A stretch of DNA of 64,000 nucleotides from a virus (IMGVR_UViG_3300043436_001089); one strand, 5' to 3'. Shown: positions 3,254-26,416, counted from the first letter of the stretch. Numbers and translations: made by a program. Notes: a model not told the origin generated them from the sequence alone.

Positions 3254-3498
3254 AATACGTAATTATCCTCAATCATTTCTCTAGCAATATCTTCGTCAAC
3301 TAAACATCTAACTACATAGTCAGTGATATCAAATTTTTCGCAAAACGCTCTACCAAATCTTATATCTTGCAATTGATAAAACAGATACTCTTTGCAAAAA
3401 AGTTCATATTCAATTTTACTTATCTTTTTCTCAGGAGCTTTGTTAAATTGTGTAAGCATACTAACAGTATGGTCAAATGTAAAATAGTTCAATCCCAA
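3250..3498 (-). CDS. Hypothetical protein
   Basis: 82-aa coding-strand ORF abutting its neighbours. Confidence 0.4.
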
Positions 3499-4028: not shown

Positions 4029-4396
4029 ACTGTTATTTTTACTTTCCCGTTTACAAATGCTACTACATGTTCACCATGCAACACAGCGGCATACTTGATG
4101 TTATTATTCTTCAATGAAAGTTCAGCAAGTTCGTCCATTGATTTTGCTTGGCATATAAAAACGTTGTTATCTCTATCGTACAGATATAGAATATCATTAA
4201 CTGATTCGACAAATAGTTGAAATACGTTTGGCTTACCATCTTCATCAGATTCAATGATGTTGTAGTCGCTATCAACTCTAATGCCGTCTTTCCTTGCTTC
4301 ACGTACAATAATGTCACGCAAGTGCCAAGACAGTACGATTTGACCAAGGTTGTATCCTACGTAGAATACAAAGGCTAAGATAATAAGTTCTAGCAT
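4025..4396 (-). CDS. Hypothetical membrane-anchored protein
   Basis: N-terminal TM helix MLELIILAFVFYVGYNL. Its stop overlaps the start of the next gene. Confidence 0.45.
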   Translation of the reverse strand: MLELIILAFVFYVGYNLGQIVLSWHLRDIIVREARKDGIRVDSDYNIIESDEDGKPNVFQLFVESVNDILYLYDRDNNVFICQAKSMDELAELSLKNNNIKYAAVLHGEHVVAFVNGKVKITV

Positions 4397-4402
4397 AGTA
4401 TA

Positions 4403-4684
4403 TTATTTATTGATAATGATATTAGACCACTTCTTTAATTTCTCAAACTTAGCCTTTTTAGCTAGTTCAAGCCCCGCAGTTGTTACTCCAATGTTCTTGT
4501 CAGTGAGCAATTCAATCATAGCAAGCAAGTCTCCCAACTCTTCTTCCAAGACTTGGATGTTTGTTTTCTCTTTGCCGGGCTTGATTTGATCGGGTCCAAA
4601 GCGCATAATCTTTGAAACTTCTTTAGCTACCTCTGCGCATTCCTCTGAGAGGATCAAAATAATTTCTCTTGTATCTTCGTTCAT
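4403..4684 (-). CDS. Small MazG-like nucleotide pyrophosphohydrolase (putative)
   Basis: 93 aa with an EExxE ... EEELGDLL pattern typical of the all-alpha NTP-PPase (MazG-like) fold. No search was run. Confidence 0.4.
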   Translation of the reverse strand: MNEDTREIILILSEECAEVAKEVSKIMRFGPDQIKPGKEKTNIQVLEEELGDLLAMIELLTDKNIGVTTAGLELAKKAKFEKLKKWSNIIINK

Positions 4685-4986
4685 TTTACTACCTTTAGTG
4701 TTGGTTTGTCATCTGTCACTACATTATTACGATGCTCCTCAAGCAATGTGATTGGGAACACGTAAGTGGAATCAGTTGACTTCTTATTAAAGAATCGGTC
4801 TAGCAATCGTTGACCAAAACGTTTGTTGTTTCTTACTGGTACAACAATCATACGACTTGCAAGGTCAACAGTATCGTCTGCATCAAGATATCCATTGCGA
4901 TTAAGCCAATACAATACTTGATGTGCGTTCGCTGTCAATTCAGTACCGTAATCTTGAGGAGAATAAGAAAATTGTTCGTAGTTCAT
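4681..4986 (-). CDS. Hypothetical protein (start taken at MNYEQFSY; the track ORF extends to 5052)
   Basis: The start at 4986 forms an ATGA overlap with the stop of the upstream gene at 4983-4985. The alternative start at 5052 would overlap that gene by 70 nt. Confidence 0.35.
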   Translation of the reverse strand: MNYEQFSYSPQDYGTELTANAHQVLYWLNRNGYLDADDTVDLASRMIVVPVRNNKRFGQRLLDRFFNKKSTDSTYVFPITLLEEHRNNVVTDDKPTLKVVK

Positions 4987-5345
4987 ACAATTAGTGCCAC
5001 AATTAAAATATAAGTTAATGAATGTAGAAACTGATCTAGACCAAGCAACCACCAGAATTGTTCATGTGTGTTTGGGCCCCAACCCATCTTTGCATTTAGA
5101 TTCATCTTAGCCCAATCAATGTGATAGTGAATAAACATATCAGCGAGACTAAGATAAATTGCCGCAATCGGAGCATACCAAAACAAACACAAGTATGTTC
5201 CAATTCCATGTAACCCTGAGTGTAAGATGCCTCCGGGGTGTCCGTATGTCCCTTTGTTGCTCCATTGATAACGATGTTGCAACGGGAAGTCTACTATAAA
5301 GTGCTTAGTGAATAATGCTAAGATTAACCAGAGTGTAATATTCAT
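4983..5345 (-). CDS. Hypothetical polytopic membrane protein
   Basis: 120 aa with three or more hydrophobic helices and a His-rich loop (HYHIDW). Confidence 0.45.
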   Translation of the reverse strand: MNITLWLILALFTKHFIVDFPLQHRYQWSNKGTYGHPGGILHSGLHGIGTYLCLFWYAPIAAIYLSLADMFIHYHIDWAKMNLNAKMGWGPNTHEQFWWLLGLDQFLHSLTYILIVALIV

Positions 5346-5346
5346 G

Positions 5347-5862
5347 TTAGTCTTTCTTTTTACTTGCAGCCTTTGCTACATACTTTTGATGATAGGGTTT
5401 CCAGTTGTCTAAGTAGTCGGTCCACTTAATCCAACGATGCATTCCCTTTTTTACTTGAACAAGAAAACCCCATTCACGTTGTTGTCTGCCCATAAAGAAT
5501 AAAGTAGTAGCGGGTTTACCTTCTTCAAGTTCAAGCCAGTGATACTCACCTGCACTACGTTTGATGATAGAGCCAGGACCACGCCATGTTTGAAACTCTG
5601 CAAACATTTTTCCGTCTTTGTTACAGACTGGTGTGTGTTCCCAGTAACCACCCTTCAACACAATAGTCATGTAAGACCAAGGATGATCGTGCATGATAGG
5701 ATCATCACTGCGCACAATCTTGTGCAACGTTACATTGAACGGGAACCATGTGCGGTCTTTCAAAAACAAGTAGTATCGGTGCATGTAATCTTCACCTGTC
5801 TGACGGTCAGGGATCAAACGATAGCGACCTAACTTGTTCATAAGATTGTGAAAGAAACCCAT
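5347..5862 (-). CDS. Hypothetical protein (possible cupin-like fold, HDHPW motif)
   Basis: 171-aa ORF. The MHDHPWSY stretch resembles a metal-binding double-stranded beta-helix segment. This is weak evidence. Confidence 0.4.
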   Translation of the reverse strand: MGFFHNLMNKLGRYRLIPDRQTGEDYMHRYYLFLKDRTWFPFNVTLHKIVRSDDPIMHDHPWSYMTIVLKGGYWEHTPVCNKDGKMFAEFQTWRGPGSIIKRSAGEYHWLELEEGKPATTLFFMGRQQREWGFLVQVKKGMHRWIKWTDYLDNWKPYHQKYVAKAASKKKD

Positions 5863-7798: not shown

Positions 7799-8271
7799 TA
7801 AGCAACCTCTGTTTCTGCTTCTTTAGCAAATGCCTCAGTCAACAACATATAGTCACCGCTGTGATCGGATACAAACCAAGTAGCAACACCATTTACATTT
7901 CGCAAAATATAATCGTATTCTTCTTCCTGACCATCAACCAAAAAGTGTTCGTAATCGTTGAAATACCGTGCCTTAGTGTAGACTTCATTACGGTCACGAC
8001 CATAGAATGTAGTCATATCACGATACAGGTCAGAATACTGTTCCAATGTCATATCAGGAACATCATAGTGACTGAAGGGGTGCTTTGTGCCAATTGTTGG
8101 TCGCAGACTTGACACATCACCCAAGTCAATCAACTCTTGCAATTTAAAGGGATCAGAATAGTTCTCAAACAGAATCTTGCCGTTATGAGCCAGATAGCCA
8201 TCCCAGTGTGCATACACCTGACCAATGCGACCATCTGCGAATTCAAGAGCGATTGTAGAACGTGTTGCCAT
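7798..8271 (-). CDS. Hypothetical protein (first gene downstream of a consensus promoter copy)
   Basis: 157-aa ORF. The Shine-Dalgarno AAAGGA and promoter copy a lie immediately upstream. Confidence 0.45.
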   Translation of the reverse strand: MATRSTIALEFADGRIGQVYAHWDGYLAHNGKILFENYSDPFKLQELIDLGDVSSLRPTIGTKHPFSHYDVPDMTLEQYSDLYRDMTTFYGRDRNEVYTKARYFNDYEHFLVDGQEEEYDYILRNVNGVATWFVSDHSGDYMLLTEAFAKEAETEVA

Positions 8272-8304: not shown

Positions 8305-8333
8305 ATTATATACCCAAAGTGATTTATTGTCAA
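8305..8333 (-). promoter_or_regulatory. Sigma70-consensus promoter copy a (TTGACA-17-TATAAT on minus strand)
   Basis: Plus-strand attata at 8305-8310 and tgtcaa at 8328-8333. The reverse complement reads TTGACAATAAATCACTTTGGGTATATAAT. Confidence 0.65.
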
Positions 8334-8346
8334 CCTTTTAGCATGG

Positions 8347-8544
8347 TTATGCAACCACTACTTCTTTCACACAGATTGCCTGCAACATGCAAAAAGCATC
8401 ATAATATTCTGTATCCGTCAAATCAGTAGACCGTTGTCTAGGTGTTCCGAAGCCAACTTCTAGTTGATAGTGATAATCGGCTATTCTCCAAAGAACTGCC
8501 GAGTCACCGTTTTCAATGTAACCTTTAGCAATAAATTGTGTCAT
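8347..8544 (-). CDS. Hypothetical small protein
   Basis: 65 aa with Shine-Dalgarno AAAGGA. Promoter copy b lies directly upstream. Confidence 0.45.
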   Translation of the reverse strand: MTQFIAKGYIENGDSAVLWRIADYHYQLEVGFGTPRQRSTDLTDTEYYDAFCMLQAICVKEVVVA

Positions 8545-8574
8545 TTTGTGTCCTTTTGTTGATTCAATACAAGT

Positions 8575-8603
8575 ATTATATACCCAAACCGATTTATTGT
8601 CAA
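8575..8603 (-). promoter_or_regulatory. Sigma70-consensus promoter copy b
   Basis: attata at 8575-8580, a 17-nt spacer, tgtcaa at 8598-8603. Near-identical to copy a. Confidence 0.65.
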
Positions 8604-8607
8604 CCTT

Positions 8608-8880
8608 TTACACCAGATCAACTTGGACTTGTTTTCCCCGTAGAGTGTGGCCTATACCTGTCGGCAATGGTTGATTTGTGCGCTTGGCTTCATAACGCAA
8701 ATACGACAATTTAATTAACGAATCCCAGCATGTAACGCGGGCATTAACTGTAGCAAACATTTCCGTCATTTGCTGGATTGTCATATACATACCGATATCG
8801 TTCTCGGAACCGTCACCCTTAAAAATCACACGGAATTTCTGAGAATTTTTGAAGCCATCAACAATAGTCTTTGTACGCAT
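8608..8880 (-). CDS. Hypothetical small protein
   Basis: 90 aa with Shine-Dalgarno AAAGGAA. Promoter copy c lies upstream. Confidence 0.45.
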   Translation of the reverse strand: MRTKTIVDGFKNSQKFRVIFKGDGSENDIGMYMTIQQMTEMFATVNARVTCWDSLIKLSYLRYEAKRTNQPLPTGIGHTLRGKQVQVDLV

Positions 8881-8908
8881 TTCAGTTCCTTTTTCAATCT
8901 ATGTATAG

Positions 8909-8937
8909 ATTATATGCCCAAACCGATTTATTGTCAA
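8909..8937 (-). promoter_or_regulatory. Sigma70-consensus promoter copy c
   Basis: attata at 8909-8914, a 17-nt spacer, tgtcaa at 8932-8937. Confidence 0.65.
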
Positions 8938-8953
8938 CCTTTAAAAGTAGTAC

Positions 8954-9469
8954 TTACTTACTAAGTAATTTAGAAAACATTCCCTTCTGTGCGAGTGTTT
9001 TACGTCCGGGTGTCGCATAATCCTTGTTCATGTGAGTTTTGAAACAATGGCAGTTATTACAAAGTGTTTGTAGATTTTTTTCACGGTTGTCTTTTGGGTT
9101 ACCGTTAATATGGTCTACTTCTAATTGAGCCGAATGACGAATTTTGTAATTGCATTTGAACCCCAATCGCCCGTCACGATTTTCACAATATTCTTTTCTG
9201 TGCTTGCGGTAAGGGTGGGTGCTATTTAAAAAATCAGCAACTGAATCAAAACCTGCCTTCTTTGCCATTACCTCAGCAATGTTTTTCAATCCATGTTTTT
9301 TTGCAGTCTTTATGTTGTGATGTGTTGTGCAAAGTTTTCTGAAAGCCGGCGTGCCATCTTTTCGATAATTACCAGTGTGCTGTGCAGCCTGTTTGCATCC
9401 TCGATGTGTGCAACGTGGACGTTCGTCCATAGGGATAAAAACTTTGTTTTCAGTTTCGGATGCTTTAGC
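8954..9469 (-). CDS. HNH endonuclease family protein
   Basis: DHINGNPKDNREKNLQTLCNNCH matches the HNH motif. CxxC/CxxH zinc ligands are present upstream. The start is trimmed to MAKASE so the promoter is not inside the ORF. Confidence 0.7.
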   Translation of the reverse strand, partial: AKASETENKVFIPMDERPRCTHRGCKQAAQHTGNYRKDGTPAFRKLCTTHHNIKTAKKHGLKNIAEVMAKKAGFDSVADFLNSTHPYRKHRKEYCENRDGRLGFKCNYKIRHSAQLEVDHINGNPKDNREKNLQTLCNNCHCFKTHMNKDYATPGRKTLAQKGMFSKLLSK

Positions 9470-9503
9470 CATAAAAAAATCCCTATTAAGTTGCAAAGAT
9501 GCA

Positions 9504-9532
9504 ATTATAACAGGGATTTTAGTTATTGTCAA
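9504..9532 (-). promoter_or_regulatory. Sigma70-consensus promoter copy d (more diverged flanks)
   Basis: attata at 9504-9509, a 17-nt spacer, tgtcaa at 9527-9532. It sits just downstream of the clpP stop. Confidence 0.55.
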
Positions 9533-9533
9533 T

Positions 9534-10124
9534 TTAAATACGTTTTTCAACGATCTTGTCAATCAATCCATAAGCTAGTGCTTCGTCTGCACTCATGAAT
9601 TTATCACGATCCATATCACGTTCAAATTCTTCGTATGTCTTACCTGCACTGTTGTGCTTGACATAGATTTCAGTCAAACGCTTTTTCAAGTATGTGATTT
9701 CTTTGTATGAAATTTCAATATCACTTTGCATACCACGTGCGCCACCTGATGGTTGATGAATCATGTGTCGTGCGTTTGGCAACATAAAACGTTTACCAGG
9801 TGCACCTGCTTGTGCAAGCAAACTACCCATTGAACAGGCTTGACCCATTACAATTGTATGTACATTGGGTTTGATAAATTGAATAGTATCATAGATAGCC
9901 ATACCTGCAGTAACACTGCCACCCGGGCTGTTAATGTACATTGAAATATCTTTTTCAGAATCTTCTGATTCAAGGAATAACAATTGGGCAACAATCAAGT
10001 TTGCCATTTGGTCGTGTACTTCACCTTCAAGTAAGATGACACGGTCACGCAATAAACGGCTATAAATGTCATAACTACGCTCACCTTTAGCGGTTTGCTC
10101 AATGACCATTGGGACTAGACTCAT
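9534..10124 (-). CDS. clpP: ATP-dependent Clp protease proteolytic subunit ClpP
   Basis: Catalytic Ser context GQACSMGS, His context MIHQPSGG, and full-length similarity to bacterial ClpP. Confidence 0.9.
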
Positions 10125-10193
10125 AATTATCCTTTAGTTAAAAGTTATATTGTACACTAGTAACAATACAAAATCAACAGTTATGGATACTTA

Positions 10194-11690
10194 TTATCTC
10201 TTTTTACGCTGACTTGTTTCTTTTTTCTTTTGTGATTTGGGTTCAGCAACATCTTTGGCAGCAGTAGCTAGATCGGGTTCGTTTTCCATACCGTCTACTG
10301 GTTCTTCGCCTGGCTCACTACTTACTGAATCATCAGTGCGGCCTAGTTTGAAACTGAAACCACCTGCAGTCGGATCAATTGCACTAGACTTGTTTTCAAC
10401 ACTAATCTTACCGTCTAGCTTTGCAGGCCATTGCGTAGCAAATGTCAGTTGACCACTCTTATAATCACAGTACTGTTGGATGAAGTTCATTTCTAGAATT
10501 TGAATGATAGCATCTTTGAACTCAGGAATAGCATCTTTGCTGTTCATAGCATCAGCTACTTCACGCTTGATACAGTATATCAATTTACCACCGTCACTTG
10601 CATTAGGAGAGTCAATATCATTAAACATGGGGTAATATTTTTTAGGCAAGGGTTGGTCAACACGTTGTTTTTTCAAGTCTAAACTCTCTTTAGCTAGGGT
10701 TGCAAGCTTTGGACTCTTTACTGCGAAAGGTAAAAACGTGTGCCACTTCTTGTTTATAGCTTTGGGGTTAACTTCAAAAATCAAATCCATAGCCGCAAAT
10801 GCTTGTGGGATTGTACCTAACTTCTGACAGATATCTATAAACTTGATAGCGTTTTCGTAGTTAGGATCCTGTCTGATATAGTCAGGAACTTTAAGGCCTG
10901 AAATAGCAGGAGCAGCTCCTCCACCGGTGCCCTTACTAGAGATATTCAATGTGTGATTGGTTGCGCTATTAGTAACAGTAGCATAGCTATCTGCCAAGTT
11001 TGTGTTTGCCTTCAACGGGAAGTTAACTGTCAACTGATTGGTATCAGCACCCATCCATCTTTGAAATTCTGCTTTTCTTGGGAAACGGCTACGATTGTAG
11101 ATTAATGCTAATACACCTAGGTATTCACCTGCGTAGTCAACAATAGCCTTACGCACTTTTTCTTTTTCTTTGCCCTGATACTCAGGGGGCAACATCACTG
11201 TATCACCCGAGACAATCATAGTTGCAAGTAGTTGAACAACTTGACCATAGTCTGTGCTGGCTAATACGGCATTGGAATTAATAACTTCATACAAGTCTTC
11301 CGCAGGGATATTCTTATCACAGATACCAATTTGACTTGGTTTGACAACTAATCCTTCTTTACCTGCTTGACTTGCATCTTGCCCGGCTGCAACCGCGGCA
11401 CCACCAAAGTCACCTGTTTTAGCTAACTGACTTAATGCAATTTCATCTCCGTCAGACAGCCGAATCTTTAATGCACCACCAAACTGTCCATTGTCAAATA
11501 GTTGTTGAAAACGTCTTGCTTCCCTAGGATCAGCAATAACTTCACTACCGTCAACTTTAGTAAAGGGCTTTTTAAATGTGATGTATTCAATGAATTTTTT
11601 AAATCGCCAATCGTATTTTTTGATTTCGTTGGCGCTCAAGCCCACTGGGGCTTCTGATAGGATTTGTATAAGGTCTAAGTATTCACGCAT
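10194..11690 (-). CDS. Hypothetical 498-aa protein with Gly/Ala-rich segments and a highly basic C-terminal tail
   Basis: Long ORF with no recognisable catalytic motif. The C-terminus is ...KSQKKKETSQRKKR. It lies directly upstream of clpP in transcription order. Confidence 0.5.
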   Translation of the reverse strand: MREYLDLIQILSEAPVGLSANEIKKYDWRFKKFIEYITFKKPFTKVDGSEVIADPREARRFQQLFDNGQFGGALKIRLSDGDEIALSQLAKTGDFGGAAVAAGQDASQAGKEGLVVKPSQIGICDKNIPAEDLYEVINSNAVLASTDYGQVVQLLATMIVSGDTVMLPPEYQGKEKEKVRKAIVDYAGEYLGVLALIYNRSRFPRKAEFQRWMGADTNQLTVNFPLKANTNLADSYATVTNSATNHTLNISSKGTGGGAAPAISGLKVPDYIRQDPNYENAIKFIDICQKLGTIPQAFAAMDLIFEVNPKAINKKWHTFLPFAVKSPKLATLAKESLDLKKQRVDQPLPKKYYPMFNDIDSPNASDGGKLIYCIKREVADAMNSKDAIPEFKDAIIQILEMNFIQQYCDYKSGQLTFATQWPAKLDGKISVENKSSAIDPTAGGFSFKLGRTDDSVSSEPGEEPVDGMENEPDLATAAKDVAEPKSQKKKETSQRKKR

Positions 11691-11708
11691 AATGAGTATT
11701 TATACGAT

Positions 11709-12200
11709 TTAACACTTAAATAGATTTTGATATCTAAACCACTTTCTTTTGCTATGTGCGCTCTTTAAAGGAATACCTAGCTTTTTAAGTTTCTCTCGGA
11801 ATATAAAAAAGCTTGGCCCATGACTCATAATAGGTTCTTTCCCCATGTTTAGTCTCCTTAGACCCTCCACATCCCATTGATATTGGTGACACATTTCATG
11901 AGCTAGTATTGTAATTAACCATTGTCTACAGTACCATTTATCCATCATTCTTATCTTGCAGTAGCTTCTAGTCTTAGTGGGCATTTGCAATGAACCATAG
12001 CACATTCCCCAATACTTTCTACAGCGTCCCATAACCTCAATCTCGGGCATAATCAATTTGTTATTGAATACGTGCTTATTCAGCATACGGTAAAGCTTGA
12101 CTACTTCATCATGATCCGTTCTATAACAAAGACGTTTCTGATAGGCTATGTTAGGAAGGTCTTCCTGCATCAGGTCTCTGAGGGTATTTTTTAAGAACAT
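11709..12200 (-). CDS. SprT-like zinc metalloprotease domain protein
   Basis: ILAHEMCHQYQW matches the SprT/Wss1 HExxH motif. Additional Cys pairs are present. Confidence 0.6.
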   Translation of the reverse strand: MFLKNTLRDLMQEDLPNIAYQKRLCYRTDHDEVVKLYRMLNKHVFNNKLIMPEIEVMGRCRKYWGMCYGSLQMPTKTRSYCKIRMMDKWYCRQWLITILAHEMCHQYQWDVEGLRRLNMGKEPIMSHGPSFFIFREKLKKLGIPLKSAHSKRKWFRYQNLFKC

Positions 12201-12281
12201 AATACTCTATTTAAGTAGACGCTTCTGTGAAAAAAATGCTATGTTTTAACCATGATTAAATATATGTTTAGGAGATTAAAA

Positions 12282-12602
12282 ATGATAGAATTTATCAAAC
12301 GTTTGTTCGGGTTTTCAGCTAAACCAGTAGAGGTAGCACCGTCTGCCCCGTACAAAGTACCAGAGCCAGTAGCTACTACACCGGTTCCATTGGGAGTAGA
12401 AGCATATACATCTACACCTGTGGGTATGGTAGAAACTAACTCAGTGGTAGCACCTGTAGCAGAAACTAAACCAGCTGCACCAGCTATAACTGCTACTAAA
12501 AAGAAAGCTGAACCTAAAGCACCTGCAAAGGCTAAACCAAAAGCTAAGGCGCCGGCTAAACCCAGGGCAGCTAAGAAGCCAAATATGACTGTAGCTAAGT
12601 AA
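12282..12602 (+). CDS. Histone H1-like / KAP-repeat basic protein
   Basis: ATG at 12282 follows AGGAG. The C-terminus is KKKAEPKAPAKAKPKAKAPAKPRAAKKP, resembling the H1/AlgP-like lysine-alanine-proline repeat. Confidence 0.5.
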   Translation: MIEFIKRLFGFSAKPVEVAPSAPYKVPEPVATTPVPLGVEAYTSTPVGMVETNSVVAPVAETKPAAPAITATKKKAEPKAPAKAKPKAKAPAKPRAAKKPNMTVAK

Positions 12603-12636
12603 TCATGATAACAGGGAAACCTGTTATCATGTTCCT
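12603..12636. terminator. Perfect 12-bp inverted repeat hairpin (catgataacagg-gaaa-cctgttatcatg)
   Basis: It lies between the stop of 12282-12602 and the ATG at 12637. It lacks a T-tract but has a strong stem. It may terminate, attenuate, or occlude the downstream ribosome-binding site. Confidence 0.45.
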
Positions 12637-13329
12637 ATGAACATCGGATTTGACGTAATCAGTGACCTGAACCTTTCCCCGGAAGATAACTTCAATTGGG
12701 AGGGTAAAGCCACAAGCTTGTATTGTATAATTGCAGGTAATGTCAGTAGTGACTTAAGAACCATCTATCAGACATTATCGCATTTATCACGGTTTTATCA
12801 AGGTATATTTTATACACTAGGATCCTTAGAATATGAGTGTGTAGACGATATAAGCAAGAGAACTGAAGAAATTTTTAAAGTCACTAGATCATTGAACAGT
12901 GTCGTAATGCTACATCATCATGTGGTAATTATCGAAGGTACTGCAATTGTCGGGGCTAACGGGTGGTACGGTACTAACCCAAGTGTAGACTTAAAAACGG
13001 AGATAGCCATCGAAAATCAACGTTACGAGGATTTATACTATCTCAAGTCTACAATAGAAAAACTCCAAAAGCATTTGGATGTAAGAAAAATAATGATTGT
13101 ATCTAGCTCTGTTCCAGGAGCAGATTTGTATTTCGGAGAAGAGCCAGGTTCAATTGATGCTCAACTACCCTTAGAACTTGTGTTGCCAAGTGACACTGAA
13201 AAGAAAGTATCTAATTGGGTATACGGCACATATGGAAAAGTAGTTGATACCACTATTAATGATATCAACTACGTGAACAACTCTTATTACAAGAGAAAGC
13301 CCTATTGGGCTAAGAGAATAGAAGTTTAA
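12637..13329 (+). CDS. Hypothetical protein, possibly a degenerate metallophosphoesterase fold
   Basis: DVISDLNL and GNVSS weakly resemble the phosphoesterase DxH / GNH(E) motifs. There is no Shine-Dalgarno sequence and the start codon abuts the hairpin. Confidence 0.35.
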   Translation: MNIGFDVISDLNLSPEDNFNWEGKATSLYCIIAGNVSSDLRTIYQTLSHLSRFYQGIFYTLGSLEYECVDDISKRTEEIFKVTRSLNSVVMLHHHVVIIEGTAIVGANGWYGTNPSVDLKTEIAIENQRYEDLYYLKSTIEKLQKHLDVRKIMIVSSSVPGADLYFGEEPGSIDAQLPLELVLPSDTEKKVSNWVYGTYGKVVDTTINDINYVNNSYYKRKPYWAKRIEV

Positions 13330-13631
13330 GCTTCTGCTTCTACTTTAACTTGTAGCGGGAATCCCTGACTACGTGCATCAAGTGTAACTTCAATACCCTT
13401 TTGCTCTGCTATTTCGTATGGCAATACAGCAACAACTGCACTTCCAGTATCGTGAATACTATTAGTGATATCAGCCGCAGTAGCAGTCGTGTAATCAAAA
13501 TAATCAATTAATGACGTAACTACAAATTCCATGCTTGTTACATCATCGTTAAAGTAAATAATCTTGAACAACGGTGGTTCCGCAAGTGTTGTGATCGGCT
13601 TGATTTTAAGTTTAGTTTCTGTTTTTGACAT
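13326..13631 (-). CDS. clpS: ClpS-like ATP-dependent Clp protease adaptor
   Basis: 101 aa. The core ...YKIIYFNDDVTSMEFVVTSLIDYF... matches the ClpS fold sequence pattern. Confidence 0.7.
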   Translation of the reverse strand: MSKTETKLKIKPITTLAEPPLFKIIYFNDDVTSMEFVVTSLIDYFDYTTATAADITNSIHDTGSAVVAVLPYEIAEQKGIEVTLDARSQGFPLQVKVEAEA

Positions 13632-13656
13632 AGTTTTTCCTTCAGTCTACATTATA

Positions 13657-14100
13657 TTATTTATTGTAGTTAATTGCAATCTTCTTGGGCTTCTGTTCCT
13701 CTGGAATTGTACGCTTTAAATGAATTGAGAGGATACCCAATTCAAGATTACAATTCTCAATATCAACGTGGTCAGCAAGCTTGAACTCACGACGGAAACT
13801 GCGAGTACTGATTCCTTTGTGTAAGTAGTTAATTTCTTCTAATGGTAGAACAGGTGTTCCATCAATGATAAGATAGTTACCCTCTTTAGTAACATCAATA
13901 TTATCAGGTCCAAAGCCGGCTACTGCTAAACTAATCATGAACTCATCTTCATTGATTTGCGCAATGTTAAACGGTGGATAGTTTGTAGTGCCTTGTTGTG
14001 CGTTGATTCTAATCATTTCGTCAAATAGATTTTCAAAACCTACTGCGAATTTGTGAATGCTTGGAATGTCCAAGGAACGAAGGGTTAGTTGGTTTGTCAT
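13657..14100 (-). CDS. Small heat shock protein (Hsp20 / alpha-crystallin, IbpA-like)
   Basis: 147 aa with the alpha-crystallin domain pattern ...GNYLIIDGT... and the conserved IxI-like C-terminus AINYNK. Confidence 0.75.
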   Translation of the reverse strand: MTNQLTLRSLDIPSIHKFAVGFENLFDEMIRINAQQGTTNYPPFNIAQINEDEFMISLAVAGFGPDNIDVTKEGNYLIIDGTPVLPLEEINYLHKGISTRSFRREFKLADHVDIENCNLELGILSIHLKRTIPEEQKPKKIAINYNK

Positions 14101-14197
14101 TTGTTTTCTCCTTTAATAAGCAAGATGACTTGTAGACCCGACTGTCGGCATCTACATACGTATTTATTATAACAAAAACACGCAAAAAAATCTAGTA

Positions 14198-15397
14198 TTA
14201 AGGCAAAGCCTTAGGCTCTAAAATACTTTCTTGATTGATATTAATTACTTTGATGTTACTCTCACGGTACTTCTTAGTGTTGTACATATGAGGCATCAAT
14301 GCACGTTCAATCTCAGTGTGCAATCCACGAGCACCTGTATTCAATTTCAAACAGTTATCCACCATCTGCTCAAGTGCTGAGTCGTTAAACTGCAAATCAA
14401 TTTGGTCGATACTGAACAAGTACTTATATTGTTCAATGTAGTTGTTCTTCACGGACGTAAGTACTTTGAGTAATTCATCCCTAGACAAGTTAGCTACACT
14501 AACAGCAGTAGTGAAACGACCGATCAATTCAGGAATCATACCAAACTTAGTCAAATCGTCAGGTGATACTTGACCCAAGTCACCTTCTTTCTTTTTGTCT
14601 TTGATATCAGCACCGAAACCAATACTAGTACCTGATTTTCTGTTTGAGATAATGTCTTTCAACCCTACAAACGCACCGCCGGCAATGAACAAAATGTTTT
14701 TAGTGTTGACTTCAAGCATATCACCACCTGGATGTTTTCTGCCGCCACCTGCTGGGATACGACATACAGTACCCTCAACAAGCTTGAGTAATGCTTGCTG
14801 GACACCTTCACCTGATACGTCACGTGTGATACTTGCAGACTCACCTTTGCGGGCAATCTTATCAATTTCGTCAATGAAAACAATGCCGCGCTCTGCAAGT
14901 TTAGGATCACCACCTGCATTGGTGACCAACATGCTAATCATAGACTCAACATCATCACCTACATATCCTGCTTCTGTCAAGCTAGTAGCATCAGCTACAA
15001 CGAAGGGAACATTAAGATATTTGGCAACTGTCTTTGCTAACAGTGTTTTACCTGATCCAGTAGGACCGATCAGCATTACGTTACCCTTTTGAATTTCTAA
15101 ATCCTTAGGAGGGTGGGTAATTCGTTTATAGTGATTAGCGATTGCTACACTAAGAACCATTTTAGCATCGTCCTGCCCGATGATATGCAAATCTAAAAAG
15201 TCCTTGATATCTGATGGATCATAGTGATCTTTTGCAATGGATTCTTCTACTACACCAATATCATCATCTATAAGTTGAGTACATTGCTCAATACAATCAC
15301 TACAGATAGCAACGTTGTCGCTTACAATCAGTTTTTTTACTATATCTTTGTGGTTACCACAAAAAGAGCAATGGTTTAATTTATTTTCAGTTGACAT
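14198..15397 (-). CDS. clpX: ATP-dependent Clp protease ATP-binding subunit ClpX
   Basis: N-terminal C4 zinc finger (CSFCG...CSDC). Walker A GPTGSGKT. Pore and sensor motifs are conserved. 399 aa. Confidence 0.9.
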
Positions 15398-15433: not shown

Positions 15434-16411
15434 TTAGCAAGTACTACTAGGAACTACTGATAGTTCAATCATCCTAGCTTGTTCAATTACTGCACGATCC
15501 TTAACGATAACTTGAATAGTTCCCTTTTCAACTGTATTACCGTAAACAACAAAATGTCTAGGATCACCAATTCCATAGAATCTATTACCACCACTGACTA
15601 GTGAGGGCACAGCGCAAGTTTTCAAGATAACCTTGTTTTCATCGTTGCGCAAAGATAGCATTAATCTAACTTCTCTATTACCTGTTACAGAATCTTTGAT
15701 CTTATCAAGCATGATTATATCATTAAATCTATACTGTTTACTAGAGCCTAGCACTAAATCTTTAGGGTTCTTGCCCATGATAGTTACGTTACTTGGAGCA
15801 GGAGAAAATCTACCAAACCTGTCATCGTCAAACATTTGCATTGCTTCTTTCAATGCTTCAATGAATTCATAATTCCAATTTAGTTGATAGGGAACTCTCA
15901 ATAAAGTATTTCTATATTGATCGGTTGAAATACTTAATGCATCTTGTTTAACAAGATATGCATTATTAGGATATGTAGCAAGTACTCTACTTAATACAAT
16001 ATCCCCTTTGTTACGTTGGTGAATGAAAGTCTGGTAACTAGCTCCCACAACTGCTCCATCAACTTCATTGTTTGATTTACCTGAGGAAATAACTTGGTTA
16101 AACAATTTACTGTCAAAGACTAACACATCCATAGTGACAACATATCGGTTAGATATAGTTTGCACGTTACTAATTTTGTAATCCTTGACATATCCTGCAC
16201 TAAACACACTGATATCATCACGTTCTAGTTTTCGAAGGGTGCTTTCTCTTTCACTTAGAACAATGGTACCTGCACGAATTTGCACAGCTTCACGAAAGGC
16301 ATGTTCTTTTGCAATTTCAAGTGTGACACCCTCACCGACTACACGGATGTAGTCAGTAGCAAATACATTAGAACAGAACAACAATGCTACTACAAATAGT
16401 AGTCTTGTCAT
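15434..16411 (-). CDS. Secreted hypothetical protein (signal peptide)
   Basis: N-terminus MTRLLFVVALLFCSNVFATD. No known domain recognised. Confidence 0.5.
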   Translation of the reverse strand: MTRLLFVVALLFCSNVFATDYIRVVGEGVTLEIAKEHAFREAVQIRAGTIVLSERESTLRKLERDDISVFSAGYVKDYKISNVQTISNRYVVTMDVLVFDSKLFNQVISSGKSNNEVDGAVVGASYQTFIHQRNKGDIVLSRVLATYPNNAYLVKQDALSISTDQYRNTLLRVPYQLNWNYEFIEALKEAMQMFDDDRFGRFSPAPSNVTIMGKNPKDLVLGSSKQYRFNDIIMLDKIKDSVTGNREVRLMLSLRNDENKVILKTCAVPSLVSGGNRFYGIGDPRHFVVYGNTVEKGTIQVIVKDRAVIEQARMIELSVVPSSTC

Positions 16412-16412: not shown

Positions 16413-17042
16413 TCAATTACCGAAACGTTTACGGAGTTGGCTAGCTGTGTTGTCGCTGTCTTTAGTCCAGCGCATAGTTACTGTTACTTCTTGCGGACCA
16501 GACACTTCTTGTTTGACAGGAATGAAGCCACGCAGTCTTGCACGTGCGTTCACACGAATGTTTTCAGCAAGACTAAATGCAGTGTCATTAGAGTTTTCAC
16601 GTACAGTAAAGTTAGTATCTTTTTCTGCGTCCTTATCAGACATTTCAACAACTTCACCTTCTTTAGCTCTAGACTTAAGGCGATCACTTGCCTTCTCAAC
16701 GTTCTTGGCAAGAGTAGTAGATACCCGATTACTAGAAATTTCTTCGCTCATAAAGTGAGCCACGTTAGCTAGGGCCTTGTCTTTAGCTCTAGTGAGGGCA
16801 GTGTTGCGATTGTTAACAGTGTTGCCGTTTGTAGTTGCACTACCGATACTAGTGATAGACACAATATCACATTCGCTTTTCCATGGCTTGTACCAAGTAC
16901 AATCTGTTTCAATGTGAATAGTATCTTGTTTAAAAGATGTTGACAACTTCTGATTTCTGATTGGTTCAGAATCATTCGATGTTTTTGTAGCACATGCACC
17001 TAAAACAAGTGACAGTGCAAGTACAGAGAGACGGATATTCAT
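16413..17042 (-). CDS. Putative lipoprotein
   Basis: Signal peptide with lipobox LVLGAC. The mature part is hydrophilic. Confidence 0.55.
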   Translation of the reverse strand: MNIRLSVLALSLVLGACATKTSNDSEPIRNQKLSTSFKQDTIHIETDCTWYKPWKSECDIVSITSIGSATTNGNTVNNRNTALTRAKDKALANVAHFMSEEISSNRVSTTLAKNVEKASDRLKSRAKEGEVVEMSDKDAEKDTNFTVRENSNDTAFSLAENIRVNARARLRGFIPVKQEVSGPQEVTVTMRWTKDSDNTASQLRKRFGN

Positions 17043-17100: not shown

Positions 17101-18684
17101 TCAACTTTTTTGGTTACTTAAATAATCCTCAACTTGCTGTTTTTCTGCGTCAGATAGTAAGTCAATATCGTACTCGCCCAATTCTATACGTTCAATTAAA
17201 AACTTGATGTATTCTTGATCGTAGAGATAGGTATCCGACTGTTCCTTGTTGATTTCTATCCATTTGCGTCCGTCAAATTTGTATACCTTATTAGGTAGTA
17301 CATCTACACGGACACGGATATCACCTTTGTTTGCTGTTTTGGGAAAGTCAGTACCAAAACTAGTTGTAATATTGTTAGTAGAGTCTGCGGTTAACATGAA
17401 CAGTTCGGGCTTCATGTTCTTTAGCACATCTCTGTGCATATGCTTGCCCTCATATGTTACGTAGTCCCCGTGTTCTTCGTAAGGTTTTTTCTTTTCCGTA
17501 GTGACATTACTGGTAATGATTTCTGATTCGACTAATGGTTCTACAGTTTCAGGTTCTCCGGGTACATCACATTTAATGTTCGGACATACTAAACCTATAC
17601 CAGGTGCATCTACTAACACCGTGTTGCATTTTAGACATTCAATTACCGTATCTTCTTCAACAAGAATTGTTTCTGGGACTACATAATCGTCAAAGTCCTT
17701 AGGGTGCTCTCCGGAATCAACAAACTTCATAGGTTCTTTAGGTGGTATAATCTCGGGTACTTCTTTTTCTATCTCTGCTAATTTATCGTTCGCTTCGGCT
17801 ACTAGTCTAGCTTCTTCATCTGCATCCAATCCTCTAGCAATTAGCTTACTGCTAGTAAAGAAATCCTCGACTTCTTTTTCAGGTTCTTCATCATCCCATT
17901 CTTTACTTGCATTAGCCGCAAGAACAAGTGCAATAGCTAGTGGATCAAACACAATAACTAATAGGATAATAACCCAACGTACTGCCGCTTCTAGTGTATT
18001 GTTATCAGCATTTTCACCGTAAATCAATGCGGCAATATATTTGATAGGTCCAACTTCTGCTTCTATCTTACGATTCTCTGCCGCAATAGGTGCTCGTTCT
18101 TCATTTAGTTTAGCAATTTCTTTTTGAGCATCACCAATTTCTTTTTGTAGTTTAGTGCGTTCGCCTGTTTGTTGTCTACGAATCTGTACGGCACGTTCAG
18201 CACTATTCTCGCTATCACCACGACTTAATCGTTGGTCAACCTGATTGTCCATTTGAGTTAATGCTTTGCGGGCTAACTCAATGTTATCTCGTTGTGTCTT
18301 AATCTTTTCATCATATAGTGATAGTTTGGCTTGACTATCACCGGTACTGATACCATGTTCCATGTGAGCCTTTGACAAGAAGCCAAAGATACCCATAGAG
18401 GTCAGTAACGCTAATGCAATAACCGCAGGCACTAGATAGAGCTTAAGCATGAAGCCACAACGTTTCCAGTACTTACGTAGCCAAACAGTTGTAGTGATTT
18501 TTCCTACCTCAAGTATACCCCCCATGATGATAACAGGAATAACCGCACCTGCAAAGATAGCGGTTAAACCGATGATACTATACCAGGCAGCTACCGAACT
18601 AAGTGATAGTGCTACTAATAGTGTGAGGTTGGAAAAACTTGTAAACTTCTTGAACATGCTATATTTATCAATCTTCCAAACCAA
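17101..18684 (-). CDS. Polytopic membrane protein with central coiled-coil and acidic C-terminal domain
   Basis: Several N-terminal TM helices. A long coiled-coil region (KLQKEIGDAQKEIAKLNEE). A second hydrophobic block. A C-terminal soluble domain with CxxC ... CxxxxC. Confidence 0.5.
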   Translation of the reverse strand: MVWKIDKYSMFKKFTSFSNLTLLVALSLSSVAAWYSIIGLTAIFAGAVIPVIIMGGILEVGKITTTVWLRKYWKRCGFMLKLYLVPAVIALALLTSMGIFGFLSKAHMEHGISTGDSQAKLSLYDEKIKTQRDNIELARKALTQMDNQVDQRLSRGDSENSAERAVQIRRQQTGERTKLQKEIGDAQKEIAKLNEERAPIAAENRKIEAEVGPIKYIAALIYGENADNNTLEAAVRWVIILLVIVFDPLAIALVLAANASKEWDDEEPEKEVEDFFTSSKLIARGLDADEEARLVAEANDKLAEIEKEVPEIIPPKEPMKFVDSGEHPKDFDDYVVPETILVEEDTVIECLKCNTVLVDAPGIGLVCPNIKCDVPGEPETVEPLVESEIITSNVTTEKKKPYEEHGDYVTYEGKHMHRDVLKNMKPELFMLTADSTNNITTSFGTDFPKTANKGDIRVRVDVLPNKVYKFDGRKWIEINKEQSDTYLYDQEYIKFLIERIELGEYDIDLLSDAEKQQVEDYLSNQKS

Positions 18685-18883
18685 ATAAATGACCGTACAA
18701 TGAGATAAACTCTTTCATAATTATTACATGTTTCTGTGGTAAACCCCTACCTTGTGTGATATGATAAGTAACCCATGGCACTAAACCATCTATTTCACTA
18801 TCTCGTTGCTTAATCTGTATTACCTCAATTTTATTACCATCTTCAAAGATAAAATACTTACCTACTAATTCTTCAGGTGTCAT
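18668..18883 (-). CDS. Hypothetical small protein
   Basis: 71-aa ORF overlapping the stop of the upstream gene. Confidence 0.35.
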   Translation of the reverse strand: MTPEELVGKYFIFEDGNKIEVIQIKQRDSEIDGLVPWVTYHITQGRGLPQKHVIIMKEFISLYGHLFGLED

Positions 18884-19398
18884 TCACTACCTTCTTTCGG
18901 TGGGCTAAAAGGCCACTTAGCAGTAGGTTCTAGCTTCAACGGTTCTGTAGTTTCTTCATCGTGTGACCCGGTGATGATAGGTTCTTCGGTACCTTCTCCG
19001 TCTGTTCGTGTAATTTCTAAATCACAATCAATAATCATTTCACACTCATCTTGACTCCAACCATGTTCTTCTAAGTCAAGCCAAGAATTACCTTCTTCAA
19101 AGAATTCTTCAATCCATTCAGTAGTTTCATCATCGCAGTCATCGGTGTCAACTTCTTCCCAACACCCGTCACTTGTTTCAACAAGTTCAGATTCGTATCC
19201 GCAGTCATAGATATCAACACCGGCTTCAATGTTAGGCGGATTATCATCATCTGTGTATACAGTGAATTCTCCCCATCTCCACCCCGTTTCAATCATTACA
19301 GTATTACCGTCTTTAGTTAGATAATTGCGCTCAAGTATTGATTTCTTCCATGTTGGTTTTACACTCCATTCAGCCATTTTAGTTCTCCTCTTCTTCAC
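18880..19398 (-). CDS. Highly acidic hypothetical protein (D/E-rich, Trp-rich)
   Basis: 172 aa with long D/E runs (EVDTDDCDDETTEWIEEFFEEG). It is a candidate DNA-mimic type protein. Confidence 0.45.
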   Translation of the reverse strand: MKKRRTKMAEWSVKPTWKKSILERNYLTKDGNTVMIETGWRWGEFTVYTDDDNPPNIEAGVDIYDCGYESELVETSDGCWEEVDTDDCDDETTEWIEEFFEEGNSWLDLEEHGWSQDECEMIIDCDLEITRTDGEGTEEPIITGSHDEETTEPLKLEPTAKWPFSPPKEGSE

Positions 19399-20035
19399 GA
19401 CTATCCATCATAACCCAACTTTCACCGCAATCAGGGCAGTAGTAACCGCTCTCTTTGATTTCAGGTAGTTCACTTTCTTTATGCATCATACCGCAACTGA
19501 AACAAGGAACAGCTTCCTCTTCGTCAGCGGCTTCTTTAGCCCATCGTGCGGCACGTTCATCAGATTCTTTCTTCTTCTGAATACCAAATTCAGTTAGTTC
19601 AGTATCACTTTCACAATACTTACAAACTCTTTTGGCTTCGTCTAAGTCATTGCCATCACTGTCTTGCCATTGCCAATCAGCTTCGTACTCACTGCCTTCC
19701 CACTTACAGTTAGTACACTTGTGTGTTGGTGGGTCGGGTTCAGGTTCGTGATGCCAACTAGATTCATCACCTAGTTCGTATGTAACATCATACCCACCTT
19801 TGCGGTCAGTCCAGCAGTCATCGTATTGAAAGTCCCATTCAATCTCTACGTCATTTTCGTAGGCATCATTGATAACTTCTTCGTAATCAACTTCACCTGA
19901 TTCAATGTCTGCGAGTTTCTGTGCAATCTCATCCTCATCCAAGTCAGGATAGATTTCACTCAATAAGTCTTCATCAAGTTCAATAGCATATTGTCTATCG
20001 TGTTGATGCCATTCATGTTTTACAATTGTTACCAT
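19379..20035 (-). CDS. Highly acidic hypothetical protein with multiple CxxC zinc-ribbon pairs
   Basis: 218 aa with CTNC...CKYC...CFSCG...CPDC and a very high D/E content. Confidence 0.45.
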   Translation of the reverse strand: MVTIVKHEWHQHDRQYAIELDEDLLSEIYPDLDEDEIAQKLADIESGEVDYEEVINDAYENDVEIEWDFQYDDCWTDRKGGYDVTYELGDESSWHHEPEPDPPTHKCTNCKWEGSEYEADWQWQDSDGNDLDEAKRVCKYCESDTELTEFGIQKKKESDERAARWAKEAADEEEAVPCFSCGMMHKESELPEIKESGYYCPDCGESWVMMDSREEEEN

Positions 20036-20095: not shown

Positions 20096-21940
20096 TTATA
20101 CTACTTTAGCATCTACTACCGTGTCATCATTGGGTTTGTTTTTAGCTTCCATTAATGGTTGTGCCGCAACATACAATTCGCTGACTGTTTGGGTAATCTG
20201 TTCCTTATCTTCGTTATTGATAGCTTCTTGAACCTTAGTGATAGCTTGTTCAACGGTATCTTTAACGTCTTGTGAAACAGTAGTTTCTTCAAGGTCTTTG
20301 CGGATAGAATGAATTTGTGCTTCTGCGGAGTTTTTAGCCTCCACAATCTCACGTTTCTTTTTATCAGCTTCTGCATTATCCTCAGCATCTTTAACCATTT
20401 GCTGAATTTCTGCTTCACTTAGACCACTGTTACTCTTAATAGTAATCTTGTTTTCTTTACCAGTGTTCTTATCTTTAGCTGAAACATGCATGATACCGTT
20501 TGCGTCAATATCAAGTGTAACTTCAATCTGAGGTTGTCCACGGCGTGCAGGCGCAATACCTTCTAGGTTAAACTCACCCAACAACTTATTATGTTGAACA
20601 AATTCACGTTCACCTTGGAATGCTTTGATAGTAACTGCAGGTTGATTGTCTTCCGCAGTACTGAATACTTGACTGTGCTTTGTAGGGATAGTTGTATTCT
20701 TCTGAATCAACTTAGTCATAACCCCACCCATTGTTTCAATACCCAAACTCAATGGAGTAACGTCAAGCAACAATACATCTTTGCGTTCACCACTTAGAAC
20801 AGCACCTTGAATTGCGGCACCAGCGGCTACTGCTTCGTCTGGGTTAACGTCTTTGCGTGGAGCCTTACCAAATAGTTTCTCAACTGTTTCTTGAACCTTA
20901 GGCATACGGGTCATACCACCAACAAGGATAACCTCGTCAATATCACTAGCACTTACGCCTGCATCTTTCAATGCTGTCTTGCAAGGAAGGACACTTCGCT
21001 GAATCAATTCTTCAACTAGTTGTTCCAACTTCGCACGATTGATGCTAATGTTCATGTGCTTAGGCCCACTTGCATCAGCGGTGACGTATGGCAAATTGAC
21101 ACTTGTTTGTTGACTACTAGACAATTCAATCTTGGCTTTCTCAGCGGCTTCTTTCAATCGTTGCAATGCTAATACATCTTTAGTCAAGTCAACACCTGAC
21201 TCTTTTCTAAATTCATCTACCAAGTAGTCCATGATGCGCTGGTCAAAATCTTCACCACCTAAGAACGTATCACCGTTTGTAGATAGTACTTCAATCTGCT
21301 TTTCACCATCAACGTTAGCAATCTCAATAATTGAAACGTCAAATGTACCGCCACCCAAGTCGTACACTGCAATCTTACGATCTTCTTTGTCTTGTTTGTC
21401 AACACCGTATGCCAAAGCCGCCGCAGTAGGTTCGTTAATGATACGCAATACTTCAAGACCTGCAATTTTACCTGCGTCTTTAGTTGCTTGTCGTTGACTG
21501 TCATTGAAATATGCAGGGACTGTGATAACAGCTTGAGTGACTGCGTGACCGAGATAATCTTCTGCGGTGGTTTTCATCTTACGCAATACTTCTGCACTGA
21601 TGCCTGGTGGTGCAAGATCCTTGTCATCTACTTTCACCCAAGCATCACCGTTGTTAGCTTCAACGATTTTGTAGGGCATCAAATTAATATCTTTTTGTAC
21701 AGCTTCTTCTTTGAACTTGCGCCCAATTAGTCGCTTTGCCGCATAGATAGTATTTTTAGGATTAGTAACAGCTTGTCGTTTTGCTGATGCGCCAACTAGA
21801 ATTTCATCATTGGCGTAAGCAACAATAGAGGGTGTAGTTCTAGCACCTTCACTGTTTTCGATAACTTTGGGGATTCCGTTTTCAATAACGGCTACACATG
21901 AATTGGTTGTACCGAGGTCGATACCGATTACTTTGCTCAT
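20096..21940 (-). CDS. dnaK: Molecular chaperone DnaK (Hsp70)
   Basis: 614 aa. [16 protein letters not shown], the substrate-binding domain and the C-terminal lid are all conserved. It is bacterial type. Confidence 0.92.
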
Positions 21941-26405: not shown

Positions 26406-26416
26406 TTATTGTCAAA

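Follow-up and report, generated by a model that had tools for sequence, protein, structure and literature searches.

What use does a virus have for ClpX, ClpP, ClpS and a small heat-shock protein of its own, and do such genes belong to the virus at all? The question is raised by IMGVR_UViG_3300043436_001089, of which we analyzed a 64,000-nt stretch (the window): the genes of all four proteins lie in one region of it, at positions 9534-15397, and a dnaK gene is found outside that region but in the same functional neighbourhood (Table 1). Every open reading frame (ORF) listed in an initial annotation was reproduced exactly in our ORF list, which additionally contains a plus-strand ORF of 230 amino acids that was missing there (unk230). 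The families assigned at the time, ClpP, ClpX, ClpS, Hsp20 and an SprT-like protein, were upheld by Pfam, PHROG and NCBIfam scans. The analysis described here makes it probable, although by no means certain, that the region is a conserved phage-encoded module for protein quality control and proteolysis, i.e. an autonomous proteostasis kit of a clade of uncultivated jumbo phages.

Conservation of the clp cluster

We compared the locus with related viral loci, counting only those with at least 7 kilobases (kb) of sequence downstream of clpX (n = 55). The core order clpX, hsp20, clpS, unk230 (on the opposite strand) and clpP is kept in 55 of 55 loci, with a span from clpX to clpP of 4.6-9.4 kb (median 6.1 kb). 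Because the same core order recurs in every one of these loci, the clustering is not due to chance. Other genes of the region are variable: the SprT-like gene was found in 44, the gene of a 498-amino-acid protein (unk498) in 26 and that of a basic 116-amino-acid protein in 6 of the 55 loci. Ratios of nonsynonymous to synonymous substitution rates (dN/dS) were obtained as pairwise Nei-Gojobori estimates, with synonymous sites saturated in ~45% of the pairs. They amount to 0.10 for ClpP, 0.11 for ClpX and 0.12 for ClpS, next to 0.11 for the phage DNA ligase; values of 0.22 were found for both Hsp20 and unk230, 0.26 for unk498 and 0.34-0.37 for neighbouring lipoprotein-like genes. The Clp set is under strong purifying selection, with ClpP, ClpX and ClpS on a par with DNA ligase.

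A clade of uncultivated jumbo phages

The contig is viral. The window carries a T4-type family B DNA polymerase, an ATP-dependent ligase, UvdE, a GP88 domain protein and an HNH endonuclease, together with numerous small ORFs on one strand that gave no family match; neither transfer RNA (tRNA) or ribosomal RNA (rRNA) genes nor a bacterial core context were found in it, and virion genes are likewise absent from this window. In DNA polymerase, Sinorhizobium phage Phosso (49% identity) and Agrobacterium phage Atu_ph07 (47%) come closest among cultured phages, followed by Rak2-like jumbo phages (~43%). At the DNA level no described phage is near: a megablast search of the region against 50,697 phage records gave zero matches.

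An identical ClpX protein was found on the source contig, a 155,510-bp JGI contig (3300042868, Ga0453135_0000031), and on several ENA contigs. In IMG/VR, 436 contigs encode a relative of this ClpX; identity is 71-89% in the best 80 of these, among which are contigs of 335, 349, 352, 364, 367 and 525 kb. Metagenomic homologues of each module gene number in the hundreds. Jumbo phages are recognized by hallmark genes in combination with a genome of >200 kb, and both were found here, the clade contigs measuring 335-525 kb and the contig with the exact ClpX 155.5 kb. ClpX marks a large clade of uncultivated jumbo phages that is related to Atu_ph07, Phosso and the Rak2-like phages. The initial annotation had considered that the contig might be bacterial, which the phage hallmark genes and the size of the clade contigs contradict.

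ClpX and ClpP

ClpX passed the cutoffs of two NCBIfam equivalogs, NF003745 (504 bits, cutoff 359) and TIGR00382 (474 bits, cutoff 371), and bears an N-terminal C4 zinc-binding domain (PF06689, 47 bits) whose four cysteines are invariant in the clade. The protein is 49% identical to E. coli ClpX and retains the cysteines of the zinc-binding domain, Walker A and B, the GYVG pore-1 loop, RKH, IGF, the arginine finger R307 and the sensor-2 residue R370; in 65 clade sequences these key residues vary little or not at all. The IGF loop, which serves in ClpP docking, aligns with E. coli residues 268-270 and reads I or M, then G, then F in the clade. The C-terminus is ~15 residues shorter than that of E. 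coli ClpX. Among bacteria and archaea (one genome per species, 185,579 species) no ClpX was more than 51% identical, and the best matches were spread over many phyla. A ClpX phylogeny against host clades had been proposed in the initial annotation: in a neighbour-joining tree the clade sits on its own long branch and shows no specific grouping with the ClpX of Atu_ph07 and Phosso. Clade ClpX is 47-53% identical to every bacterium sampled in the tree, compared with 52-71% for bacterial phyla among themselves.

These data bear on the possibility that the region is bacterial DNA or a set of recently captured host genes, carried as passengers without a phage function. All five proteins have cellular homologues, and DnaK, whose distribution in the clade is patchy, shares 66-70% identity with its proteobacterial counterparts. 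However, such an origin is at odds with the phage hallmark genes of the window and its lack of tRNA, rRNA and bacterial core context, with a ClpX that stands on its own long branch at no more than 51% identity to any sampled bacterial genome, and with synteny in 55 of 55 loci, saturated synonymous divergence and dN/dS values of ~0.1. For ClpX, ClpP, ClpS and Hsp20 a bacterial or passenger origin is already refuted by hallmark genes, ClpX divergence, synteny and dN/dS, and we give this explanation next to no credence. Given the complete synteny, the invariant residues, dN/dS values of ~0.10-0.12 and the absence of any bacterial ClpX above 51% identity, the Clp genes are long-term residents of the phage lineage. 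As far as origin is concerned, the recent host-derived passengers envisaged in the initial annotation are thus not what we find, in view of synteny, dN/dS, ClpX divergence and the affinity of ClpP.

ClpP matches the Pfam family CLP_protease (PF00574, 272 bits, cutoff 20) and the cellular ClpP model NF001368 (315 bits, cutoff 249), and it is 63% identical to E. coli ClpP. Its triad S98, H123 and D174 corresponds to E. coli S111, H136 and D185 and is invariant in 49 clade sequences; the N-terminal loop LVPxVxEQT is conserved as well. The protein lacks the E. coli propeptide and starts where mature E. coli ClpP does. Its closest homologues, above E. coli, are those of Phosso (70%) and Atu_ph07 (67%), which fits inheritance within this phage lineage. 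Judged by alignment with the E. coli proteins and by invariance within the clade, ClpX and ClpP retain every residue for ATP-driven unfolding, IGF docking and serine proteolysis, and the genes of what the initial annotation called a complete ClpXP protease look functional.

ClpP might also act in virion morphogenesis, in which case it would be a prohead maturation protease and ClpX and Hsp20 would be assembly chaperones. The ClpP-like prohead maturation proteases of tailed phages have the ClpP/crotonase-like serine protease fold in common with it, and PHROG lumps them, labelling ClpP-like phage proteins as head maturation protease; RefSeq does likewise for the Atu_ph07 homologue, and a part in virion assembly is named as a possibility in the Atu_ph07 paper (PMC6102473). 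However, the protein described here is a stand-alone ClpP of 196 amino acids, 63% identical to that of E. coli, which passes the cellular cutoff and fails the ClpP-related head-maturation model (103 bits, cutoff 120), above which prohead proteases score. Prohead ClpP-like proteases are usually fused to or located next to scaffold and capsid genes; clpP lies among replication, repair and accessory genes, not structural genes, and its product is paired with a ClpX bearing the IGF docking loop. Model scores, E. coli identity and the non-structural gene context led us to reject a prohead protease. By its sequence the protein is a true ClpP, and a role in morphogenesis appears highly unlikely.

Directly downstream of clpP there is a gene for an HNH endonuclease that has a perfect sigma-70 promoter to itself. 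This gene is present in few of the related loci and is probably a mobile homing endonuclease insertion.

ClpS and its ClpA partner

ClpS was recognized by Pfam (PF02617, 79 bits, cutoff 23). It is 35% identical to E. coli ClpS and its N-terminal extension is 6 residues shorter. In E. coli numbering, the ClpS of the window keeps N34, D35, D36, T38, M40 and H66, the N-degron pocket residues of the E. coli protein, as well as E79, E82 and K84. Across 55 clade sequences N34, D35, T38, H66, E79 and E82 are invariant and M40 is found in 53, while D36 varies (D, E, N or S) and K84 is K or R. As judged from these alignments, ClpS retains both the N-degron pocket and the ClpA-contact residues. ClpS binds the N-domain of ClpA (ClpC in other lineages), and ClpX is without such a domain. 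As an N-degron adaptor it belongs, by well-established biochemistry, to ClpA/ClpC and not to ClpX (Dougan 2002, as cited in PMC6102473), and the Atu_ph07 paper presents ClpS likewise. The initial annotation, which had assigned ClpS to ClpXP as its N-degron adaptor, has to be corrected in this point: ClpS serves ClpA/ClpC, and the phage protein keeps the residues for contact with ClpA.

Clade members with a polymerase 81-89% identical to that of the window encode a ClpA of 757-758 amino acids, 40-43% identical to that of E. coli, in which a Clp_N domain, the two AAA+ modules and an IGF loop are present. It is located ~50 kb from the ClpX cluster, outside the window, with a DnaJ gene immediately upstream of clpA; the DnaJ-ClpA pair lies a few kb from the DNA polymerase region. 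Such pairs were found at L385:2452-3249 and 3274-5550, L356:780-2981, and L383:1838-2647 and 2671-4944. Two of these loci share a contig with a ClpX cluster: L385 and the cluster locus L017 are on Ga0214921_10000017 (IMGVR_UViG_3300023174_000038, 348,701 bp), and L356 and the cluster locus L062 are on Ga0209084_1000001 (IMGVR_UViG_3300027749_002876, 524,565 bp). The records of each pair were equated through their identical number of bp, and for the 348,701-bp pair also through the same sample number. In a sister clade (polymerase 54-62% identical) ClpA is encoded ~8 kb from the polymerase. When viral contigs were scanned with ClpA of E. coli and with profiles of phage and of sister-clade ClpA, the large contigs of the clade were not named among the 600 stretches and 80 loci listed. 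The partner of ClpS is likely the phage ClpA that clade genomes encode ~50 kb away, and by analogy with these relatives the phage of the window presumably has a ClpA of its own.

Another possibility is that ClpS docks on host ClpA, where it would block ssrA-tagged and other ClpA substrates and so redirect or inhibit host ClpAP. The conserved ClpA-contact residues E79, E82 and K84 are compatible with this, and Iyer et al. read phage ClpS as recruiting host ClpAP (PMC7824862). Furthermore, ClpA was found neither in the window nor in the 10 kb past its polymerase end, and none of the best 120 matches to the nearest ClpA comes from the 155,510-bp contig; the metagenome collection scanned for ClpA leaves out the source contig of the window. 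However, clade genomes with the cluster have a full-length ClpA of their own, complete with Clp_N domain, and ClpS is inherited together with ClpP, selection being equally strong on the two. We regard an action of ClpS on host ClpA as clearly improbable.

Hsp20, DnaK and DnaJ

Hsp20 has an alpha-crystallin domain (PF00011, 56 bits, cutoff 20.8; phrog_432, 128 bits) and a C-terminus ...KKIAINYNK with an I-x-I motif. The gene is present in 55 of 55 loci, always between clpX and clpS in the core order. As for the "IbpA-like" small heat-shock protein of the initial annotation, the Hsp20 family stood and IbpA is indeed the best match, but orthology to IbpA did not hold (115 vs 212 bits).

DnaK is full-length (NF001413, 977 bits, cutoff 648). 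Its identity to proteobacterial DnaK (from phage-collection records) is 66-70%, and to Firmicutes sequences 56-60%. The gene lies directly between clpX and hsp20 in 19 related loci and 5-6 kb upstream of clpX in 3 loci and in the window, and it is absent from 36 of 53 adequately flanked loci. Every related copy is 76-93% identical to that of the window: there is one phage DnaK lineage, variably retained and always near the Clp module. The ORFs downstream of dnaK (19379-20035 and 18880-19398) gave no family match, and neither GrpE nor DnaJ is recognisable beside dnaK. The DnaJ-ClpA pair is also present in Atu_ph07 (gp293-gp292) and Phosso.

The stretch between dnaK and clpX contains three genes in the window. 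Their products are a secreted protein that bears a signal peptide, a lipoprotein whose lipobox reads LGAC and a multi-pass membrane/coiled-coil protein with a weak DUF4407 match; the first two genes are fast-evolving (dN/dS 0.34-0.37).

Genes interspersed in the cluster

unk230, encoded on the opposite strand and present in the module in 55 of 55 loci, is a metallophosphoesterase-fold protein (four-layer alpha/beta sandwich) with degenerate metal-binding motifs. Calcineurin-like metallophosphoesterases carry the dimetal motifs DxH, GD, GNH(D/E), H and GH. At these positions, which were assigned on the linear sequence and not by structural superposition, unk230 reads D-L-N, G-N, G-S-L-E and G-T/S, and the replacements are conserved across 57 sequences. 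An active metallophosphoesterase was rejected because the metal ligands are lost and Pfam Metallophos gave no match. unk498 is without a family match and represents a phage-only family of unknown fold, with homologues also in phages that lack this module, including a T4-like cyanophage. Its C-terminal tail (10194-10340) is disordered, acidic and then basic, and ends in GRxKR(K); this end is kept in 49 homologues while the preceding sequence varies. Profile searches of both proteins against PDB sequences yielded chance-level matches only (E >0.3). The SprT-like protein (PF10263, 32.5 bits, cutoff 25.6) has a motif HEMxHQYQWD, containing the HExxH zinc site, that is invariant in 43 clade sequences; SprT-like peptidases have already been noted in group 2.2 jumbo phages (PMC7824862). 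The basic protein, termed H1-like in the initial annotation, matched no family in Pfam, PHROG or NCBIfam, and a low-complexity C-terminal half limits its detection, so that the 6 loci mentioned above are those in which it is detectable.

The suggestion that the neighbouring unknowns may be adaptors found no support: unk230 is a fold with lost metal ligands and unk498 a phage-only family. SprT-like peptidase, unk230 and unk498 are co-located with the Clp genes, and nothing ties any of the three to Clp function. According to a different view of the locus, the phage Clp machines would mainly destroy specific host proteins (defence factors, antitoxins, regulators) in a targeted takeover of the host or as counter-defence. 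The SprT-like peptidase might then expose N-degrons for ClpS and hence ClpAP, and the unknowns might be adaptors or anti-adaptors. In line with such a role are the complete N-degron pocket of ClpS, an SprT-like peptidase with an invariant HExxH in the same block of 44 of the 55 loci, and the constant presence of unk230, which by sequence looks like a non-catalytic scaffold; host proteins are also the targets that Iyer et al. propose for ClpS and for the patchy peptidases of phages (PMC7824862). However, any substrate or adaptor relationship is purely hypothetical, SprT and unk498 are dispensable in many clade members, and homologues of unk498 exist in phages without the module such as the cyanophage. 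Hsp20 and DnaK, encoded at the same place, speak for folding and holding and not for destruction alone. A targeted takeover is in our opinion rather unlikely, although it deserves to be kept in mind.

Very doubtful is an orthogonal, fully virus-encoded degradation pathway in which ClpXP and ClpAPS would be steered by SprT as a maker of N-degrons, by unk230 as an adaptor or anti-adaptor and by unk498 via its GRxKR end as a MuA-like ClpX tag. If true, it would constitute a viral N-degron/adaptor system without a described counterpart, and the unk498 tail would make this protein a timed substrate or a delivery factor.

Promoters and neighbouring genes

The window contains nine perfect TTGACA-N16-18-TATAAT sites where 0.07 are expected, all of them on the minus strand that carries the genes. 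An extended consensus TTGACAATAAATCnnTTTGGGTATATAAT is common to five of the nine. These sites look like a family of phage early promoters that would be read by host sigma-70. Four copies are located just downstream of clpP (8305-9532) and one upstream of the ligase gene (24021-24049); dnaK is preceded by an 11/12 promoter match with an extended -10. The T4-type late motif TATAAATA occurs twice in the window, fewer times than expected by chance. A generic promoter/terminator scan of the window remained at chance level and yielded no operon structure. On the basis of the canonical -35/-10 promoters and the DnaK affinities, there is a weak indication of a proteobacterial rather than a Bacteroidota host.

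Several further genes were observed in the window (Table 1). A pathway for nucleobase modification of the 7-deazaguanine or queuosine type is suggested by GTP cyclohydrolase I, a QueD-like protein (6-pyruvoyl-tetrahydropterin-synthase), two radical-SAM proteins and an ATP_bind_3 (PP-loop) protein taken together. The window also encodes an SPFH/Band-7 domain protein; cellular relatives (HflK/C; stomatin with NfeD) regulate membrane proteases. Accessory genes encode a D-Ala-D-Ala carboxypeptidase (Peptidase_S11), a dCMP deaminase, an NAD-dependent epimerase, a glycosyltransferase and a cytidylyltransferase/mannose-6-phosphate-isomerase fusion. Beyond the end of the window (L176:4448-5439, 7799-8236 and 9042-10004) there are additional stress-related accessory genes, namely for a ferritin-like protein and an Fe/Mn superoxide dismutase and, in the same stretch, for a staphylococcal-nuclease-like and a TctC-family protein.

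Table 1. Positions of the cluster genes, promoters and neighbouring genes in the window
Feature	Position	Strand	Product length or remark
clpP	9534-10124	-	196 amino acids
unk498	10194-11690	-	498 amino acids
SprT-like zinc metallopeptidase	11709-12200	-	163 amino acids
Basic Ala/Pro/Lys-rich protein	12252-12602	+	116 amino acids
unk230	12637-13329	+	230 amino acids
clpS	13326-13631	-	101 amino acids
hsp20	13657-14100	-	147 amino acids
clpX	14198-15397	-	399 amino acids
Three genes between clpX and dnaK	15434-16411, 16413-17042, 17101-18684	-	
dnaK (Hsp70)	20096-21940	-	
HNH endonuclease gene	8954-9472	-	
Perfect TTGACA-N17-TATAAT promoters	8305-8333, 8575-8603, 8909-8937, 9504-9532, 24021-24049	-	
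Further perfect TTGACA-N17-TATAAT promoters	26387-26415, 26710-26738, 27004-27032, 55700-55728	-	
SPFH/Band-7 domain protein	31586-32398	-	
Putative 7-deazaguanine- or queuosine-type gene set	44308-45396, 45547-46101, 48893-49627, 58807-60294, 60286-60879		
Accessory gene	1234-1980	+	
Accessory gene	2412-2933	-	
Accessory genes	40456-42647, 51318-52106		

Proposed function of the module

According to the reading that we favour, the phage would make its own proteostasis kit. ClpX and ClpP would assemble into a phage-made ClpXP protease, and ClpS would deliver N-degron substrates to the ClpA that is encoded elsewhere in the same genomes beside DnaJ, with phage ClpA using the same phage ClpP as ClpX. 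Hsp20, DnaK and DnaJ would hold and refold aggregation-prone proteins. In this way the supply of unfoldase, protease and chaperone could be independent of host gene expression during a long infection in which several hundred phage proteins are made; the kit would probably also recycle host protein. What the sequences show is that the genes are intact, inherited together and under selection; assembly, substrates, timing and benefit are inferred.

Some observations weigh against it. ClpP stays just under the TIGR00493 cutoff (300.8 vs 308.6), ClpS is below all eight NCBIfam ClpS equivalog cutoffs (best 67 vs 149 bits), and Hsp20 does not reach the equivalog cutoff of its best NCBIfam match, IbpA NF008013. 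Neither the perfect-site nor the generic scan revealed a strong promoter inside the Clp cluster, and the ClpA that ClpS would require was missing from the window, from the following 10 kb and, among the best 120 matches, from the 155,510-bp contig. The case for the module genes is built on their sequences, in which general proteostasis and targeted host takeover would look the same.

An abundant clade of uncultivated jumbo phages has thus long kept a complete and apparently working Clp/chaperone toolkit, part of it packed into one syntenic block, which supports the view that very large phages are partly freed from host proteostasis. For biochemists, the divergent ClpX, ClpP, ClpS and ClpA of the clade are a compact set to compare with the machines of cells.

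Comparison with known systems

The phage proteins agree with ClpXP and ClpAPS of E. coli in domain architecture and in every catalytic, pore-loop, docking and adaptor-contact residue that was tested, although identities are limited in ClpX (49%), ClpS (35%) and clade ClpA (40-43%). The genes are arranged differently: E. coli has clpP-clpX and clpS-clpA operons, whereas here clpX-hsp20-clpS and clpP are grouped and clpA is distant in clade genomes.

The initial annotation stated that phages usually borrow host proteases, which overstates the rarity of the genes, as Atu_ph07, Phosso, PA5oct-like and Rak2-like phages encode Clp components. For Atu_ph07, ClpX, ClpA, ClpB, ClpP, ClpS and DnaJ were reported in 2018, and the authors suggest that the host is thereby helped through the stress of infection (PMC6102473); its gene set also includes Hsp20 (PMC6102473, PMC7824862). 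Iyer et al. 2021 catalogued ClpP, ClpS, SprT-like peptidases, Hsp20, ClpA and ClpX in jumbo phages (PMC7824862). Atu_ph07 and Phosso, the closest cultured relatives by DNA polymerase (47-49%), are jumbo myoviruses of 470-490 kb. Phosso encodes ClpX, ClpA, ClpP and ClpS and a DnaJ-like protein beside ClpA, a DnaJ-ClpA pairing that is common to it and the clade. However, clpX of Atu_ph07 and Phosso adjoins IF-3 and topoisomerase genes, unlike here, and their clpP, clpS and clpA are tens to hundreds of kb apart, while clpX, hsp20, clpS and clpP lie within 4.6-9.4 kb in the clade. ClpX of the window is 48-51% identical to the proteins of these two phages. DnaK is present here, and tblastn found none in Atu_ph07 or Phosso among the matches listed.

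Among cultured jumbo phages, the PA5oct-like phages of Pseudomonas have genes for ClpS, ClpP and ClpA within ~21 kb of each other. Identities are low, with 53% for ClpP and 31% for ClpS to the proteins of the window and 43% for PA5oct-like ClpA to E. coli ClpA. No PA5oct-like record was among the 30 ClpX matches listed; overall, 46 Pseudomonas-phage records matched. The moraphages (Perez-Hernandez et al. 2025) are uncultivated aquatic jumbo phages with a near-core ClpA and frequent DnaJ, and with DnaK or Hsp20 in some members; ClpX, ClpP and ClpS are not reported in that paper (PMC12619734). Moraphage DnaK nests in Flavobacteriaceae and the predicted hosts are Bacteroidota (PMC12619734), whereas the DnaK described here is most similar to proteobacterial sequences and the promoters are canonical TTGACA-17-TATAAT. 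The gene set itself was already known from Atu_ph07, Phosso, PA5oct-like and Rak2-like phages and does not represent a new kind of system. What is new is that clpX, hsp20, clpS and clpP are tightly clustered throughout the clade, that dnaK recurs in or beside the module, and how large the uncultivated clade that carries it is.

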